Source: an uncultured Gammaproteobacteria bacterium
GTDB taxonomy: Bacteria; Patescibacteriota; Microgenomatia; Daviesbacterales; UBA10151
Assembly: GCA_964523905.1 (NCBI GenBank)
Contig: CAZFYQ010000005.1
Location: 10,299-74,298, forward strand
Length of the DNA stretch: 64,000 nt
Direction of reading: 5' to 3'
Made by a program: the position numbers and the translations under genes
The notes under the pieces: generated by a model
Databases searched by the model: none
What the model saw: only the letters and a program-made list of their open reading frames with translations
What the model was told of the DNA's origin: nothing
Shown here: positions 12,633-15,860 of the stretch, piece by piece
How positions within the stretch are numbered: position 1 is the first letter of the stretch
Layout: every line of letters starts with the position of its first letter

Positions 12633-13526
12633 ATGGATGAGGGGGATATGGAACAAGAAAACTTGGTAGGAATACATCCTGATACATACCTTAGAGAACT
12701 TTACGGCAAAGCAGTTGATCCTGAAACCGGCGCTCACAATATGGGTATGGCCCATACCGCATTAGCAGAAGCCTACTTAGTAAAGCTCGAAGACTTTTGG
12801 AAAATACACCCTGAAGAAGCTCCTCAAATTGCCAAGGATCAGGTTAGCAAAGAATTGGAGGAATTGGTTAAACAAGGCAATGAGGAATCGTTTAAATTAG
12901 CCATATTTAAGGAGGGAGCCAGGGCCTTATTTGCGGAGTCAATTAAGGATGCTGATAACGTAATTATTGATACTGTTGGAAATGAGGAGCAGCAAGCACA
13001 GAAGCTTAAATATCTTAATCCGGCTGAACAGGCCACTCAAGAACTGATAGCCGGCGGGATGAGCCAAGAAGAGGCTACACTACTGGTACGTAAGAAGCTT
13101 GAGGTGCATATTCATGCCGCTAATAAACACCAGGTTATTGAGCAGGAAATCAAAATGTTTAAAGCATTAGGTTATCGAACTGTGTTACTAGCCGATGATA
13201 AAGGCGAAAATATTGCCAAATATCAGGAAATTGGCCGAGCCACCAATGATAATAACCCAGAACACCCATTTCAGGTGTTGGATTATTACGTTAATAACGA
13301 CCCTAAGCAAACAGAAGGAGATATTAATCATTTTGGACAGTTTATGCGGGATGAAATCAAAAGAACTCATGAACAAGGCGGTAAAGTAGCCGTGATCTGG
13401 GACTGGGATGATACGCTTTATGATGAGTCTAAGCGCGTCGCAATTGCCCACCAGATCACTGAAAGATTAATTAATCAAAGATACATCAAAATCGCCTCAG
13501 TTCCTTCCCTACCCGTAGCTGCTTAA
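12633..13526 (+). CDS. hypothetical protein with a C-terminal HAD-motif-I-like segment
   Basis: 297-aa ORF. Residues near the C-terminus read GGKVAVIWDWDDTLYD, which matches HAD motif I (hhhhDxDxTL). The rest has no recognisable family. Confidence 0.5.
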   Translation: MDEGDMEQENLVGIHPDTYLRELYGKAVDPETGAHNMGMAHTALAEAYLVKLEDFWKIHPEEAPQIAKDQVSKELEELVKQGNEESFKLAIFKEGARALFAESIKDADNVIIDTVGNEEQQAQKLKYLNPAEQATQELIAGGMSQEEATLLVRKKLEVHIHAANKHQVIEQEIKMFKALGYRTVLLADDKGENIAKYQEIGRATNDNNPEHPFQVLDYYVNNDPKQTEGDINHFGQFMRDEIKRTHEQGGKVAVIWDWDDTLYDESKRVAIAHQITERLINQRYIKIASVPSLPVAA

Positions 13527-13603
13527 TTTTTCTTAATATAACTGCTATAGTGAAATTGTGGCAGAAGCAACATCAACAGGCTAAGCATAACTAGCTAGCC
13601 AAC

Positions 13604-14323
13604 CTAGGGATGATAAGTTACTTTACGCTGGATGTCTGTAGAATTACCGGCTGCATCAGTGGCCTGGATATCAACCGTATTATCTCCTTCATTAATATCA
13701 ATGGTGGTAGAAAAACCACCATCACTACCAAGCACTACTTGGCTACCATTTACTAAGACTTGGATTCCTGGTTCGGTTTTTCCCGAAACCTGAACCTTTT
13801 TATCACCACCCTGGATAGTTTTATTATCTTCCGGTGAATCCACTGATAAATCCGGTTTTTGGTTATCATAAGTAACAGCATATGTTTTGGAAGGTAAACT
13901 GAGCTGGTTTTTATCATCAACAGTTTTAGCGAAAATATTATTAGTCCCTAAACTTAAAGAGATATCATTAAAAATAAACGAGCCGTCATCTCCGGCTTTT
14001 TCTGTGCCTTTTAGGTCATCATCAATATATAAATTAACTTTAGAATCCGCGGTGGCATAGCCGGAAATAGTAATCTGAGCTGTATTTGTAGCCTCAAAAG
14101 GAATACTTAAAATTGGTGGAGCTAAGGTCGGATTTTCCGCCGCTGATTGGACAGGAGCTGATTTGTGTCCAAAGTTTTTAAAAAAACCTACTCCGTTAAT
14201 TAAAAAGGGTAATACCCAGGTAAAAGCCACATATAATAAGACCAGAATTATTACAATGGTAGCAATAAAATTATAACGGGTTTTACGAGCCAATCTTCTG
14301 TTTGAACGCGTCTGATAAGCCAT
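13604..14323 (-). CDS. hypothetical membrane-anchored extracellular protein (Ig/Big-like beta-rich)
   Basis: Basic N-terminus plus a TM helix. The rest is Thr/Ser/Asp/Gly-rich with repeated VxxGxxD patterns. Confidence 0.5.
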   Translation of the reverse strand: MAYQTRSNRRLARKTRYNFIATIVIILVLLYVAFTWVLPFLINGVGFFKNFGHKSAPVQSAAENPTLAPPILSIPFEATNTAQITISGYATADSKVNLYIDDDLKGTEKAGDDGSFIFNDISLSLGTNNIFAKTVDDKNQLSLPSKTYAVTYDNQKPDLSVDSPEDNKTIQGGDKKVQVSGKTEPGIQVLVNGSQVVLGSDGGFSTTIDINEGDNTVDIQATDAAGNSTDIQRKVTYHP

Positions 14324-14506
14324 GCTTTGTTGTCACATCAAACCTATTCCTGTGACAAGAAATTGTTTTTGATACCTCGCAGCTCCTTTTCTGTGGGGTA
14401 TTTCAATACATTATATCCTAGTAGTAAAATAGATGTCGCTAGTTTACTTCTGGTGATTAGCGAGAAGCGGTGGTAATTTCCGACAAAAGCTAGACAATTT
14501 GCCGGA

Positions 14507-14657
14507 CCTGCCAAAATATAGAATTTTTGGCAGGCAGTGGTAGAATGCCTCCTTCCTCCACTAAAAGCCCGCCCATGGCGGGACATTTTAGTGGACCCAC
14601 CAAAATACCTGCCCGCAATTGCTATGCGTTGCAGGCGGGCGAAGTTTTTGGTGGGCA
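14507..14657. repeat. three consecutive long palindromes of form X-AAAA...GC-rich inner stem...TTTT-X'
   Basis: CCTGCCAAAA-tatagaat-TTTTTGGCAGG; CCACTAAAA-gcccgcc-cat-ggcggga-c-ATTTTAGTGG; CCCACCAAAA-...cctgcccgcaattgc...gcaggcgggcg...-TTTTTGGTGGG. Each outer arm pair is an exact reverse complement. Confidence 0.6.
14535..14556 (+). pseudogene. tRNA-Gly fragment (D-loop to anticodon loop), 21/22 nt identical to the intact tRNA-Gly 390 nt downstream
   Basis: cagtggtagaatgcctccttcc versus cagtggtagtatgcctccttcc in the tRNA at 14945-15016. No acceptor or T-arm is present. Confidence 0.55.
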
Positions 14658-14675
14658 AGGTGATAAGCTAAAAAT

Positions 14676-14954
14676 ATGATGTATTTTACTTATGTACTTT
14701 TGTGCGAAAATAGCAAAACTGGTAAAAAGAATTTTTATATTGGTTGGACAGAAAATCTCGAAGAGCGCTTAGAAGATCATCGATCAAAAAGCACGCCAAC
14801 TACAAAACAATTTGATAAAATAGCGCTGGTTTATTATGAAGCAAGTTTATCTAAAACAGATGCTATCAGCAGAGAGAGGCAGCTCAAGACAGGTTTTGGT
14901 AGAGGCTATATTAAGCGAAGAATCGAAAGTTATTTAAAAGATTTGCGGGTGTAG
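14676..14954 (+). CDS. GIY-YIG nuclease family protein (small, UPF0213/YhbQ-like)
   Basis: FYTYVLLCENSKTGKKNFYIGWTENLEERLEDH carries the GIY-YIG motifs (YVL...YIG...R..EH). The ORF's last 10 nt, including the stop, lie inside the tRNA-Gly 5' end. Confidence 0.8.
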   Translation: MMYFTYVLLCENSKTGKKNFYIGWTENLEERLEDHRSKSTPTTKQFDKIALVYYEASLSKTDAISRERQLKTGFGRGYIKRRIESYLKDLRV

Positions 14955-15016
14955 TACAGTGGTAGTATGCCTCCTTCCCAAGGAGGAGATCGCCGGTTCG
15001 AGCCCGGTCACCCGCT
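14945..15016 (+). tRNA. tRNA-Gly (anticodon CCC)
   Basis: GCGGGTG-TA-GTAC-AGTGGTA-GTAT-G-CCTCC-TTCCCAA-GGAGG-AGAT-CGCCG-GTTCGAG-CCCGG(T)-CACCCGC. Anticodon loop TTCCCAA gives CCC. Confidence 0.85.
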
Positions 15017-15030
15017 CTAAAGCCTATAGT

Positions 15031-15059
15031 TTGACAAGGAACGAGCTATTTAGTATAAT
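15031..15059 (+). promoter_or_regulatory. consensus sigma70-like promoter TTGACA-N17-TATAAT, 6 nt upstream of the 15066 ATG
   Basis: ttgaca (15031-15036), 17-nt spacer, tataat (15054-15059). Confidence 0.45.
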
Positions 15060-15065
15060 CTCTCC

Positions 15066-15860
15066 ATGACAAAAGAAGGATTTGAGCCTATATTTCATGG
15101 AAAAATGGAAGCTGTCGCGCAACTTTCTGATCTGGAATTCCAGGAATATGCCCTTGAGAAGAGTCTCTTACTCCCTAGTGCATTAAGGGAAAAAGCAGCA
15201 GCATTTATCCATAACCTAGGTTTGGGTTTACTAGTTTTACCATCCAGGGTGATTTACATTCCAATATCACACGGCCCATTAAATTCACCTGATGAGCATA
15301 AAACTAAAATTGCAGTAGCTAAAGTTTTGGGCAGAACCGTCGGAAATAGCTTGATTGCGAATGGAGAATCCGTAAGTAAAGTACAAAGCCAGCAAGGTAT
15401 TAGAAGAAGTCATCTACGTTTTTTTAGAGAAATGACTAAATGGGGGTTAACTACTAATATCAAAAGTCAACAAAAAACTTTAAGCGGCTTTGAGATGGCT
15501 ATTACTGAATATTTGGCAGAACATCAACACATAAAAGGTGTTGGGGTTGATTCTTTTGATGGAAATATTGTGAGTACTGCAGTCATGAGCCAAGCTTTAG
15601 AATCCGACAGATTTAATATGGAACAAAATTTGGACTTAATTGCTACCTTTGCTGCTGAAGCGAGAACGCGCAATGCGTTAAATAGAGCCACAGTTTATTT
15701 AGATACAAACCAAGAGCTTATTTTTTTCCAGGGATCACTACATCAAAATGGTGTTACTGAGTGGTGTAAGAGGCATACTGTACCATACCAGATACTTACA
15801 CCTGAAACAGAAGAGGTAGAGGATTCATCAATAATACCAGTTGAAAAGCCGGTAGTTTAG
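15066..15860 (+). CDS. hypothetical protein
   Basis: 264-aa ORF directly after tRNA-Gly, carrying the consensus promoter above. No recognisable family. Confidence 0.5.
   Translation: MTKEGFEPIFHGKMEAVAQLSDLEFQEYALEKSLLLPSALREKAAAFIHNLGLGLLVLPSRVIYIPISHGPLNSPDEHKTKIAVAKVLGRTVGNSLIANGESVSKVQSQQGIRRSHLRFFREMTKWGLTTNIKSQQKTLSGFEMAITEYLAEHQHIKGVGVDSFDGNIVSTAVMSQALESDRFNMEQNLDLIATFAAEARTRNALNRATVYLDTNQELIFFQGSLHQNGVTEWCKRHTVPYQILTPETEEVEDSSIIPVEKPVV

Follow-up and report, generated by a model that had tools for sequence, protein, structure and literature searches.

Our results suggest, at a probability of roughly two in three, that the nested palindromes at positions 14479-14655 of the 64,000-nt stretch of DNA analyzed here (the window) form the left-end cis module of a compact mobile cassette whose targets are tRNA genes. 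The cassettes span ~0.5 kb, and between their copies of a double-hairpin module, which we call H, lie only a gene for a 92-aa GIY-YIG nuclease and a tRNA. In the complete form a host tRNA gene is divided at a point p, giving the order host tRNA positions 1 to p, H, 5-12 nt of tRNA, the nuclease ORF, an intact tRNA, 5-10 nt of tRNA, H, and host tRNA from p+1 to the end; p falls within a tRNA loop, namely between positions 35 and 36 of the anticodon loop, in the D loop or, rarely, in the T loop. The cassette is widespread in the ultra-small CPR/Patescibacteria bacteria.

The first-pass annotation had described three consecutive hairpins of 30, 37 and 62 nt with exactly complementary arms. Their position and the perfect 10-nt inverted repeats of their arms hold (14507-14516/14525-14534 in unit 1, 14557-14566/14586-14595 in unit 2, and 14596-14605/14646-14655 in unit 3), while the lengths are 28, 39 and 60 nt; folding also predicts the GC-rich inner stems that it saw in units 2 and 3. 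Perfect inverted repeats of at least 9 nt with loops of at most 70 nt number only 28 across the whole 64-kb window, and the three adjacent units share the arm motif CC-N-R-C-Y-AAAA. Given this adjacency, the common motif and the paucity of such repeats in the window, the array exceeds chance expectation. It is not a CRISPR array, as the annotation had also stated, since its units are inverted repeats differing in sequence and length, with no identical direct repeats. Folding of 14500-14665 as RNA gave -80.5 kcal/mol on the plus strand and -80.9 kcal/mol on the minus strand versus about -52 kcal/mol for shuffled sequences (z = -6.9 and -7.0; none of 200 shuffles equals it). The hairpins are thus real, with z of about -7 on both strands in the folding check proposed in that annotation. 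For single-stranded DNA, z lies between -5.8 and -8.4 for both modules of the array, whichever strand is folded. The annotation had not recorded a fourth, degenerate hairpin (14479-14506, TCCGAC..GCCGGA), which together with unit 1 makes up a second module, H1. Also overlooked were the link to the GIY-YIG gene and intact tRNA downstream, and the fact that units 2 and 3 are a single conserved module. A covariance model made from the H copies of other genomes (R1) matches the window at 14551-14661 (62 bits, E = 1e-11) and 14473-14540 (52.5 bits, E = 2e-9), with no further match elsewhere within the 64 kb.

The locus can be read base by base as the dead 5' remnant of a tRNA-Gly gene interrupted by two H modules, in the order positions 1-12, H1, positions 13-34, H2, CAAGG. 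The outermost piece of the disrupted host gene is a degenerate remnant of positions 1-12 on the plus strand (GCGGTGGTAATT, 14467-14478), for which L004 and L036 (such handles denote individual loci) have the aligned counterparts GCGGTGGTAGTA/GCGGTGGTAGTT in the equivalent position; positions 1-12 of tRNA also form the left flank of 16 other H copies, as in GCGGGATTAGTT-H-TAGTGG. H1 (14479-14534; unstranded, like H2 and the mini-hairpin below) is an older, partly degenerate double hairpin in the D loop of the remnant, between positions 12 and 13. It consists of hairpins A' (14479-14506) and B' (14507-14534, unit 1), folds as DNA at -14.2/-15.7 kcal/mol (z = -5.8/-6.5), and shows compensatory differences in its arms relative to L004 (CCAGCC/GGCTGG) and to L036. 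The plus-strand piece that follows, positions 13-34 from the D loop to the second anticodon base (14535-14556), is the tRNA-Gly fragment that had been noticed between units 1 and 2, and 21 of its 22 bases equal those at 14957-14978 of the intact tRNA-Gly(CCC); in L004 and L036, too, this piece lies between two H modules. H2 (14557-14655) is a well-preserved double hairpin, made of hairpin A (14557-14595, unit 2) and hairpin B (14596-14655, unit 3) and placed between anticodon positions 35 and 36 (CTTCC-H-CAAGG). It aligns column by column with H from 14 other genomes, folds as DNA at -34.3/-33.1 kcal/mol (z = -8.4/-7.2), and its arms TCCACT/AGTGGA and CCCACC/GGTGGG carry compensatory changes relative to the consensus TCCGCC/GGCGGA and CCCGCC/GGCGGG. 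The loop of hairpin B in turn contains a GC-rich mini-hairpin (CCTGCCCGCAATTGCTATGCGTTGCAGGCGGGCG, 14608-14641), whose family occurs also in L020, within a tRNA 5' remnant, and in L042, reversed in the loop of hairpin A; the window has no second copy of it. Hairpins are likewise nested inside the loops of other hairpins in L006 and L028, which accords with loops being the targets.

On the inner side of H2 the tRNA continues on the plus strand with CAAGG (14656-14660), positions 36-40, followed by the nuclease gene (14676-14954, plus strand; likely start at the second ATG, 14679). The stop codon of this gene, TAG (14952-14954), constitutes positions 8-10 of the intact tRNA-Gly(CCC) (14945-15017, plus strand; called by ARAGORN and matched by the Rfam tRNA model at 66 bits), so that gene and tRNA overlap; this is the working tRNA that accompanies the nuclease gene. 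The window therefore holds the common left-only form, in which the dead 5' remnant has been struck twice, by H1 in the D loop and by H2 in the anticodon loop; the R1 search found no right-end H and no 3' tRNA remnant in the window. The same layout is found in L004 and L036, with compensatory changes in the arms, and in both a TATAAT lies just ahead of the 5' remnant. The array sits between the divergent gene starts at 14323 (minus) and 14676 (plus), and neighboring ORFs encode an Ig-domain protein, an orphan protein and glycosyltransferase-type proteins. The 264-aa neighbor is recorded only in the same sequence (L001), with no homolog at E <= 1e-10, and neither the GIY-YIG protein of the window nor the 239-aa protein has an exact-match record. 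It is barely conceivable that the locus instead encodes a 104-aa minus-strand protein (14344-14658) and that the palindromes are incidental. An open reading frame does exist there, but a Pfam search with its translation gives no match, the homologous DNA of L004 and L036 contains stop codons in every minus frame along with indels whose lengths are not divisible by three, and the tRNA remnants and H explain the DNA base by base; the earlier suspicion that this ORF is spurious was correct.

The nuclease matches Pfam PF01541 (E = 2.3e-12; 47.5 bits versus a cut-off of 22.6). Among 31 homologs Y6, Y21, G23, R31 and E67 are invariant and H35 is nearly so, residues which we take to correspond to Y6, Y17, R27, H31 and E75 of I-TevI. 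Judged from its sequence, the protein is a stand-alone member of the GIY-YIG superfamily with the catalytic residues present. An AF2 model (pLDDT 88) compared by Foldseek returned 1zg2 (UPF0213), 7cq3 (Slx1), 7wme (At-HIGLE) and 4xlg (Slx1), in that order, ahead of I-TevI and UvrC, although with weak E-values (8.6e-4 at best). A phmmer search of the PDB gave as its sole match, weakly, the UPF0213 protein 1ywl (E = 0.085), and an NCBIfam scan gave nothing above threshold. Sequence and predicted fold, at these weak scores, both point to the Slx1/UPF0213 subgroup rather than to the homing endonuclease or UvrC types.

The association of H, nuclease and tRNA recurs across genomes. We counted linkage in 80 species-level genomes, each with a locus homologous to the nuclease gene; all are metagenome assemblies, in which such repeats may be collapsed or mis-joined. 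H lies within 250 nt upstream of the nuclease ORF in 74 of the 80 loci, and a tRNA lies within 200 nt of the ORF in 74. In 66 loci a same-strand tRNA starts between -25 and +30 nt from where the ORF match ends (49 of the 66 are Gly-CCC), and in 16 of the 80 loci the carried tRNA is followed downstream by another H and a tRNA 3' remnant. Among 98 H copies, the insertion loop was the anticodon loop for 42, the D loop for 41 and the T loop for three, with flanks of TTCC-H-CAAG or TTCC-H-CAAA in 42 of the 98. The inner flank of H follows even unusual anticodon stems (CAAACT in L029 and L064, CAAGCAT in L024), and the tRNAs struck, at three different loops, are those for Gly, Val, Ile, Asn, Thr, Ala and Leu. 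The left and right H copies of one locus are often near-identical (64 of 68 positions in L070 and 64 of 69 in L081). Viral carriage found no support: six viral contigs had the junction pattern and none of them a true H, and no relatives of the nuclease were found encoded on viral contigs.

Units 2 and 3 are one copy of this conserved double-hairpin DNA palindrome, H. Its hairpin A reads TCCGCC-N-AAAG..loop..CATT-N'-x-GGCGGA and its hairpin B is approximately the reverse complement of A; the conserved core comprises an outer CCGCC/GGCGG clamp, a fixed bulge and an A.A mismatch, and H varies in size from 56 to 100 nt. When units 2 and 3 were aligned with H from the 14 other genomes, compensatory changes appeared at 16 of 23 predicted pairs, and in 150 matches to the covariance model 96.1% of cells are paired, with both sides changed in all 23 pairs. 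The covariation score is 0.42, versus 0.139 for shuffles (none of 500 reaches 0.42); with slid partners it does not exceed 0.087. The fold of H that covariation supports is one of two hairpins side by side. We rejected a single long hairpin and a cloverleaf-like four-way junction, as the variable N and N' pair within the hairpins and not across them. Moreover, H is dyad-symmetric and the covariance model matches both strands, and among 1792 pair cells in ORF-sense rows G:U occurs 17 times and A:C 16 times. Because G:U is as rare as A:C and both strands are matched, Watson-Crick pairing is kept on both strands; with all 23 stem pairs covarying, this argues that the constraint acts on DNA.

Two other readings were weighed. 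It is very improbable that H and the preceding tRNA 5' half form a functional RNA, whether a 5'-UTR regulator or processing signal, or a guide plus scaffold for the nuclease by analogy with the omega RNAs of IscB and TnpB. The layout, with a flanking target, conserved hairpins and a nuclease ORF, does resemble an omega-RNA locus, covariation is very strong, and the position just 5' of the ORF is conserved. However, G:U pairs show no excess over A:C, the model matches both strands of this dyad-symmetric module, further copies are found 3' of the tRNA or on their own, no Rfam family covers H, and the nuclease is a 92-aa catalytic domain with no obvious RNA-binding surface. Rfam 15 gives nothing that overlaps 14467-14660, even at E <= 10; a permissive search of 13500-15600 and a search of the whole window at gathering thresholds returned tRNAs only. 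The structured noncoding RNA that had been offered as one guess thus finds no backing.

The second reading, in which the hairpins are bidirectional intrinsic terminators or insulators that stop transcription from a dead tRNA promoter or a divergent gene, is improbable as well. The inner stem of unit 2 (14568-14582) fits a terminator pattern on both strands, bidirectional terminators have the same arrangement of A-tract, stem and T-tract, Watson-Crick-only covariation would likewise follow if both strands were selected for folding, and H is present also 3' of the tRNA, where a terminator would be expected. Yet this inner stem alone is terminator-like in the supposed trio of the first-pass annotation, many H copies have no GC-rich inner stem, and what comes after the conserved outer CCGCC/GGCGG clamp is CAAGG or a further stem rather than a T tract. 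The upstream H, furthermore, stands between the sole plausible promoter and the nuclease ORF, and the stem sequence is kept across CPR phyla far beyond what termination needs. The array also does not lie at the 3' end of a transcription unit; it is flanked by divergent gene starts, 5' of the gene that it accompanies, just as H is 5' of the nuclease ORF in the 74 loci. In all probability, the hairpins are neither a stand-alone RNA nor a trio of terminators.

The best evidence for insertion comes from in silico removal. When the block from the left H to the right H is deleted, a junction-spanning tRNA that ARAGORN accepts is obtained in L012, L030 (identical to L133), L070, L002 and L014. The restored tRNAs are isoacceptors of the carried tRNA with a different sequence (37 of 73 positions identical in L014), and their junctions have no duplicated and no missing bases, thus no target duplication. 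Since a tRNA is restored when the whole block is removed, the block is an insert in a tRNA loop and brings its own substitute tRNA. Excision of H alone gives a junction-spanning tRNA only in L002, where it is borderline; two other calls merely touch the 3' end of an adjacent tRNA-Pro. We therefore rejected H as an intron, because apart from this borderline case its excision gives no intact tRNA genes. A group I intron was rejected too, as there is no Rfam intron match, H measures only 56 to 100 nt and it does not separate two complete exons. A cassette that carries only the 5' half of a tRNA is contradicted by the downstream H, the 3' remnants and the whole-block excision. Other loci hold decay forms: the ORF is deleted in L158, only a C-terminal ORF stub is left in L154, L163 has a tRNA, H and a 3' half without the ORF, and elsewhere H stands alone, in L122, L151, L159, L127 and L111 even with no tRNA context at all. 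Such a decay series is typical of a selfish element, and H may, given its solo copies, have an independent life of its own.

Alternatively, H could be an autonomous small palindromic repeat, REP/BIME- or MITE-like, that gathers in tRNA loops and beside the GIY-YIG gene, spreads alone or via a trans-acting enzyme, and is a separate entity from the nuclease-tRNA block. We consider this unlikely. It would account for the 19 true H loci obtained in an H-seeded search, only eight of which have the nuclease gene and five to eight of which have no nearby tRNA, for single hairpins nested in the loops of others, and for two H copies within one remnant in the window, L004 and L036. Against it, however, stand the 74 of 80 nuclease genes with H closely upstream, the bracketing of the block by H on both sides, and the restoration of a tRNA by removal of the whole block and not of H alone. 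In addition, the window holds only two copies of H in 64 kb, both at one locus, so that H is no dispersed high-copy repeat here, and solo copies could equally well be leftovers of recombination, like solo LTRs.

For the tRNA-splitting cassette we propose the following mechanism, in which structure-specific cleavage and copy-repair are inferred. A structure-specific nuclease of Slx1/UPF0213 type would break an uninvaded tRNA gene at an extruded stem-loop, and an invaded allele would serve as the template for repair, so that the cassette is copied into the break by way of the homologous tRNA halves (homing by copy-repair). The carried tRNA would keep the host viable. At the ends of the cassette, H would act as a hairpin or cruciform site in the DNA, interrupting the targeted loop in leftover copies of the arm, and is probably the recognition or cleavage substrate of the nuclease itself, although simple homing needs no cis element. 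Loci with only a left end, only a right end, no ORF or a solo H might then arise when the repeated tRNA halves, or the two H copies, recombine. Depending on the locus, the short inner flanks agree with either the carried or the host tRNA, and joining could occur either by copy-repair from the donor or by staggered cuts at the arm base. Several points count against the cassette: the presumed target is present intact in the carried tRNA, the 92-aa nuclease has no DNA-binding domain, and the window locus offered neither an empty allele nor a right end. Judging from the arrays in loci like L015 and from the two hits in the window, the carried tRNA does not always seem to escape cutting.

A bolder version, which we put forward tentatively and hold to be doubtful, is that this is a new DNA mobile element whose sole protein, a minimal GIY-YIG nuclease resembling a Holliday-junction resolvase, reads shape, not sequence, and cuts extruded stem-loops or cruciforms. 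Its targets would be the D, anticodon and T arms of tRNA genes and the loops of its own hairpins, and the double-hairpin palindromes would be cruciform-forming ends for cutting, copying or joining. The inner arm copies beside each H might then record staggered cutting where the extruded arm begins, at its base. In this version a 90-residue enzyme would drive structure-targeted transposition or homing, the tRNA being its compensating cargo.

If the cassette is real, it would be among the smallest self-contained mobile elements known, with two palindromic ends, a 90-residue nuclease and a tRNA, and it would compensate for an essential gene that it destroys with a replacement that it carries. It would explain why, in hundreds of CPR/Patescibacteria genomes (a single pattern-limited scan gave 228 at species level), small genes of the GIY-YIG nuclease family abut tRNA genes, and account for the tRNA half-fragments, the odd nested palindromes and the possible horizontal movement of tRNA-Gly genes at such loci. 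The tRNA fragments, and spurious ORFs over the palindromes such as 14344-14658, are traps for annotation, and the covariance model of H now finds both cassettes and relics. A minimal nuclease for the loops of DNA stem-loops would also be of interest for studies of structure-specific nucleases and of how homing targets change.

In the literature that we searched, which mostly excludes subscription journals and hence provides only absence of evidence, no cassette of GIY-YIG gene, tRNA and double hairpins is described. Several known systems nevertheless share features with it. SegB, a free-standing GIY-YIG homing endonuclease gene, lies within the tRNA gene cluster of phage T4 (PMC2330249). Like the cassette, the seg genes of T4-like phages combine a GIY-YIG gene with neighboring tRNA genes, and they are thought to spread, along with their neighbors, by cutting alleles that lack them and by repair copying. 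Seg proteins are larger, however, and have DNA-binding domains, whereas the cassette nuclease is a bare 92-aa domain with a predicted fold nearer to Slx1/UPF0213 than to I-TevI; in the seg case, moreover, the tRNA gene is unsplit and there are no palindromic end modules and no tRNA half remnants. A homing-type insertion interrupts a host gene that its precise removal restores, and this is what we found in L012, L030/L133, L070, L002 and L014.

Tyrosine-integrase islands and prophages also insert into tRNA genes, often in the anticodon or T loop region, and leave a displaced tRNA fragment; they carry tRNA sequence, as the cassette does, so that a working tRNA persists. They use an integrase and restore just the 3' part of the tRNA, whereas the cassette has no recombinase (no tyrosine or serine recombinase gene is found among the ORFs neighboring the window locus), carries a whole replacement tRNA, leaves both host halves and has a double hairpin at each junction. 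REP/BIME-RAYT systems and IS200/IS605 elements employ HUH tyrosine transposases and occur as many dispersed copies. They resemble the cassette in their short, GC-rich, imperfect palindromes, which are often in inverted pairs and serve as DNA-level cis sites, and in the absence of target duplication; they differ in that the cassette has a hydrolytic GIY-YIG partner and no HUH (Y1) transposase ORF, a low copy number (two in 64 kb) and tRNA-loop targets. Of the three guesses made for the array in the first-pass annotation, a MITE-like remnant came nearest: H does occur at both ends in the manner of terminal inverted repeats in 16 of 80 loci (in the window at the left end only), but there is no target-site duplication and no DDE or other transposase, the GIY-YIG nuclease being the only ORF of the cassette.

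As for the nuclease, Slx1 and HIGLE cut branched DNA and Holliday junctions, which fits a substrate of extrudable hairpins. Unlike it, Slx1, HIGLE and the YhbQ-like UPF0213 proteins serve in housekeeping repair and have additional domains or partner subunits, and we know of none that is linked to tRNA genes or palindromic modules. Mitochondria offer small mobile double-hairpin elements and, in Allomyces, a mobile endonuclease ORF that carries a replacement gene end; the likeness is conceptual only, as the genomes, sequences and endonucleases differ and tRNA loops are not targeted. Archaeal tRNA introns of the BHB type and split tRNA genes likewise involve several loop positions and tRNA halves, whereas H alone does not lie between complete exons, no splicing motif or endonuclease is implied, and a separate intact tRNA functions. 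The insertions in rRNA genes of CPR bacteria interrupt structural-RNA genes at stem-loops and, where they encode GIY-YIG proteins, are unlike group I and group II introns (PMC11270868). They share with the cassette both the host group and the choice of conserved structural-RNA genes, but are presumed to be removed from the RNA, whereas the tRNA that the cassette interrupts is dead and is replaced by the carried copy.

The three consecutive hairpins that the first-pass annotation placed at 14507-14657 are indeed present as units 1 (14507-14534), 2 (14557-14595) and 3 (14596-14655), each with outer arms forming a perfect 10-nt inverted repeat (CCTGCCAAAA/TTTTGGCAGG, TCCACTAAAA/TTTTAGTGGA and CCCACCAAAA/TTTTGGTGGG, respectively), and folding predicts the GC-rich inner stems of units 2 and 3. 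However, a fourth, degenerate hairpin at 14479-14506 had been overlooked. The entire window contains just 28 inverted repeats that are perfect over at least 9 nt, and the hairpin segment outperforms shuffled sequences on both strands as RNA (z = -6.9 and -7.0) and also as DNA (z = -5.8 to -8.4). It occupies a divergent intergenic region, with a nuclease ORF and then a tRNA next on the + strand. The tRNA-Gly fragment reported between units 1 and 2 is 22 nt long and agrees at 21 of 22 bases with positions 13-34 of a tRNA-Gly(CCC) whose gene lies 400 nt downstream. An Rfam search over the hairpins gave no family match. The 104-aa minus-strand ORF in the same space, already suspected to be spurious, matches no family and is not kept in homologous DNA, and it is almost certain that the region does not encode it.

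The arrangement recurs in other genomes, and we suggest, with a probability of roughly 0.7 for the reading as a whole, that the hairpins are the end module of a mobile cassette that invades tRNA genes. A scan of species-representative genomes yielded 228 loci with a relative of the nuclease, 80 of which were retrieved and form the basis of our counts. A same-strand tRNA starts between -25 and +30 nt from the end of the ORF match in 66 of the 80 and within 200 nt in 74, and four of the remaining loci are contig ends. The carried tRNA is Gly-CCC in 49 loci and Gly-UCC or Gly-GCC in 13, the others being Asn, Val, Ile, Thr, Ala and Leu. In many of the 80 loci its first 12-35 nt are repeated, exactly or nearly so, upstream of the ORF, and between this copy and the ORF sits a conserved hairpin pair followed by the next tRNA bases (e.g., CAAGG). 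The first hairpin reads TCCGCC-N-AAAG..CATT-N'-x-GGCGGA and the second CCCGCC-x-N-AATG..CTTT-N'-GGCGGG; units 2 and 3 of the window match this pair, which we call H (hairpins A and B), column for column. Seven cassette-bearing MAGs (L007, L009, L013, L073, L076, L078 and L080; L-numbers denote homologous loci from other genomes or metagenomes) carry the titles Gammaproteobacteria, Clostridia, Elusimicrobia or Sedimentisphaerales, which are either default or mis-binned labels on genomes of CPR (Patescibacteria) or a sign that the cassette extends beyond CPR. Non-Gly targets (Asn, Val, Ile, Leu, Ala) are concentrated in more distant homologues with those titles.

The bases on either side of each H are successive tRNA positions (98 copies). 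H lies between anticodon positions 35 and 36 in 42 copies (..CTTCC-H-CAAGG..), in the D loop in 41 (e.g., GCGGGATTAGTT-H-TAGTGG or ..GTTGGTTA-H-GAGC..) and in the T loop in 3, while 12 have no clear placement. Right downstream of the intact tRNA, 16 of the 80 loci have a second H, preceded by a few tRNA bases and followed by the remaining tRNA through its 3' end, so that the complete layout is bracketed by H: host tRNA positions 1 to p (the insertion point), H, 5 to 12 nt, nuclease ORF, intact tRNA, 5 to 10 nt, H, and host tRNA from p+1 to its end. Deletion in silico from left H to right H produces a junction-spanning tRNA that ARAGORN accepts in L012, L030 (and its metagenomic twin L133), L070, L002 and L014, with zero bases extra or missing, that is, the loop was entered without target duplication. 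The restored and carried tRNAs are the same isoacceptor but differ in sequence, down to 37/73 identical positions in L014. Deletion of H alone followed by an ARAGORN rerun did not restore the tRNAs (except the junction-spanning tRNA in L002). Since it is whole-block removal that restores the tRNA, the block is an insertion in a pre-existing tRNA gene that brings its own like-for-like replacement. Assigning the short inner flanks to the donor versus to staggered cuts at the arm base had a mixed outcome.

The window locus, lacking the right-end H, belongs to the common left-only type, and its 5' remnant was hit twice: degenerate tRNA-Gly positions 1-12 (14467-14478, GCGGTGGTAATT), H1 as a D-loop insertion (14479-14534), tRNA positions 13-34 (14535-14556), H2 as an anticodon insertion (14557-14655), CAAGG (14656-14660), the nuclease ORF (14676/14679-14954, +) and the intact tRNA-Gly(CCC) (14945-15017, +). 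Because L004 (a Levyibacteriota genome) and L036 share this double-hit layout with compensatory arm changes (e.g., CCTGCC/GGCAGG against CCAGCC/GGCTGG), with ORFs about 62-67% identical, the hairpins have been maintained across considerable divergence.

Fifteen copies of H were aligned with MAFFT, and RNAalifold resolved them into a pair of adjacent hairpins in which 16/23 pairs carry compensatory changes. The covariance model built from them finds exactly two copies in the window, at 14551-14661 (62 bits) and at 14473-14540 (52.5 bits), the latter comprising unit 1 and the degenerate hairpin, and places H just 5' of the nuclease gene in 74/80 loci. Across 150 model matches, 96.1% of cells are paired, double changes occur at 23/23 pairs, and the covariation score is 0.42; shuffles score 0.14, and slid partners no more than 0.09. 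Hairpins A and B are approximately reverse complements of each other, which makes H dyad-symmetric and lets the model match it on either strand; moreover, G:U cells are as rare as A:C cells (17 and 16 of 1792), so Watson-Crick pairing is kept on both strands. Such conservation is that of DNA, whether as a hairpin, as a cruciform or as a site read from either strand. A one-strand transcript would not give it, and a functional RNA or guide, which the omega-RNA-like locus layout might suggest, is very improbable given the lack of G:U enrichment, the dyad symmetry and the presence of H also 3' of the tRNA. Scarcely more probable are bidirectional terminators, which the inner stem of unit 2, and no other, would fit, but no T tract follows the conserved clamp and H stands 5' of the ORF. 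A GC-rich mini-hairpin (CCTGCCCGCA..TTGCAGGCGGGCG) nested in the hairpin B loop of the window (14608-14641) also occurs inside the tRNA 5' remnant of L020 (about 2370-2406) and, reversed, in the hairpin A loop of L042 (about 2395-2435), and may belong to another family of small palindromic insertions, one that likewise inserts into the loops of hairpins.

The 92-aa ORF at 14676-14954 (+) encodes a GIY-YIG nuclease domain and nothing more (Pfam E 2e-12), and the intact tRNA directly follows and overlaps it (14945-14954). The final codons of the ORF (ttG CGG GTG) come from the acceptor stem, and its TAG stop is tRNA positions 8-10, the conserved U8-A9-G10. Such an overlap seems to be common, judging by the family's C-terminal consensus ('..K x x R x') and by how many tblastn matches extend into the tRNA. 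Homologues number in the hundreds at 55-70% identity, the named ones from Levybacteria, Gottesmanbacteria and other Patescibacteria. The catalytic residues are conserved. AlphaFold models the protein with confidence (pLDDT 88), and in the PDB the fold comes closest to BH0048, a stand-alone UPF0213 protein, to Slx1 and to plant HIGLE, with I-TevI and UvrC ranking below. By sequence, the only solved structure that matches belongs to another UPF0213 protein. As structure-specific nucleases, Slx1 and HIGLE cleave branched DNA and Holliday junctions, and a cruciform is a junction of the Holliday type. A consensus -10 box (TATAAT) lies 8-13 nt upstream of the dead tRNA 5' remnant in L004 (about 2305-2335) and L036 (about 2305-2330, with TG upstream), so transcription of the nuclease gene, through H, may start from the former tRNA promoter; the corresponding box of the window (14450-14466) has decayed to GATTAG. 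Further on, a perfect sigma-70 consensus (TTGACA-17-TATAAT, 12/12; 15031-15059) precedes a 264-aa ORF (region 15031-15860) that has no Pfam match and, in a search of 5.8 billion proteins at E<=1e-10, matches nothing but its own sequence.

A metagenome search seeded on the H junction and filtered by the covariance model gave 19 true H loci, eight of them complete or left-only cassettes. Decay is seen as a series: L158 (230-450) has 19 nt in place of a deleted ORF, L154 (1800-2050) keeps the last ~13 nuclease codons (..KRRLENFLKSKM*) between H and tRNA, and L163 (270-470) lacks an ORF and reads tRNA, H, 3' half. H also occurs solo, with neither a tRNA nor a nuclease gene near it (L122 1613-1670, L151 1850-1896, L159 1533-1592, L127 626-673, L111 9962-10006), in AT-rich stretches between genes or in other settings; in some of these copies one hairpin is reduced to TCCGCC-loop-GGCGGA. 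Such copies would suit an independent REP- or MITE-like repeat, but the linkage of H to the nuclease gene and the tRNAs restored by whole-block excision make this unlikely. No H was found in viral contigs. Left and right H of one locus are often near-identical (64/68 in L070, 64/69 in L081). Whole B-type hairpins sit within another hairpin's loop in L006 (2384-2434) and L028 (2690-2724), as in TCCGCCCAAAG [ CCCGCCAGAAT..TTTGGGCGGG ] CATTGTGGCGGA, so H loops are themselves insertion targets. In L015 (2850-3100), the intact tRNA is followed by the unit ATGAAGTATTAAGACCTTCC - H - tRNA 3' half twice in tandem, with a different acceptor strand in the second 3' half; repeated invasion or an assembly artefact could account for this.

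We propose how a tRNA-invading cassette might move, with considerably less confidence in any single step than in the cassette-end reading itself. The nuclease would break uninvaded tRNA genes at extruded stem-loops, and repair of the break would copy in the cassette of an invaded allele, with the tRNA halves as homology, giving full, left-only or right-only products according to the repeated half used. Recombination between repeats could then yield ORF-less and solo-H forms. H would be the cis element, a probable binding or cleavage site for the nuclease, and would interrupt the target loop in leftover arm copies. It is tempting to see here a truly new, structure-targeted mobility mechanism, which we regard as possible but doubtful.

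We rate the cassette as a homing-type selfish element. It would work in like manner to free-standing homing-endonuclease genes; T4 SegB is located among tRNA genes (PMC2330249). It is also like tRNA-targeting integrative elements in restoring the tRNA, and its ends resemble REP/BIME or IS200/IS605 hairpins. However, it is not a group I intron by the tests that define one, it has neither the target-site duplication nor the transposase of a TIR transposon, and it lacks the HUH enzyme of IS200/IS605 and REP-RAYT systems and the recombinase of an integrase island. A full-text literature search, with most subscription journals lying outside it, held no description of the cassette. The nearest parallel in the same host group is the insertion sequences in CPR rRNA genes, where every GIY-YIG protein was reported to be encoded by insertions unlike group I and group II introns, and where most insertions occupy either the top or the base of a stem-loop (PMC11270868). 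Those GIY-YIG insertions may be the same kind of cassette.
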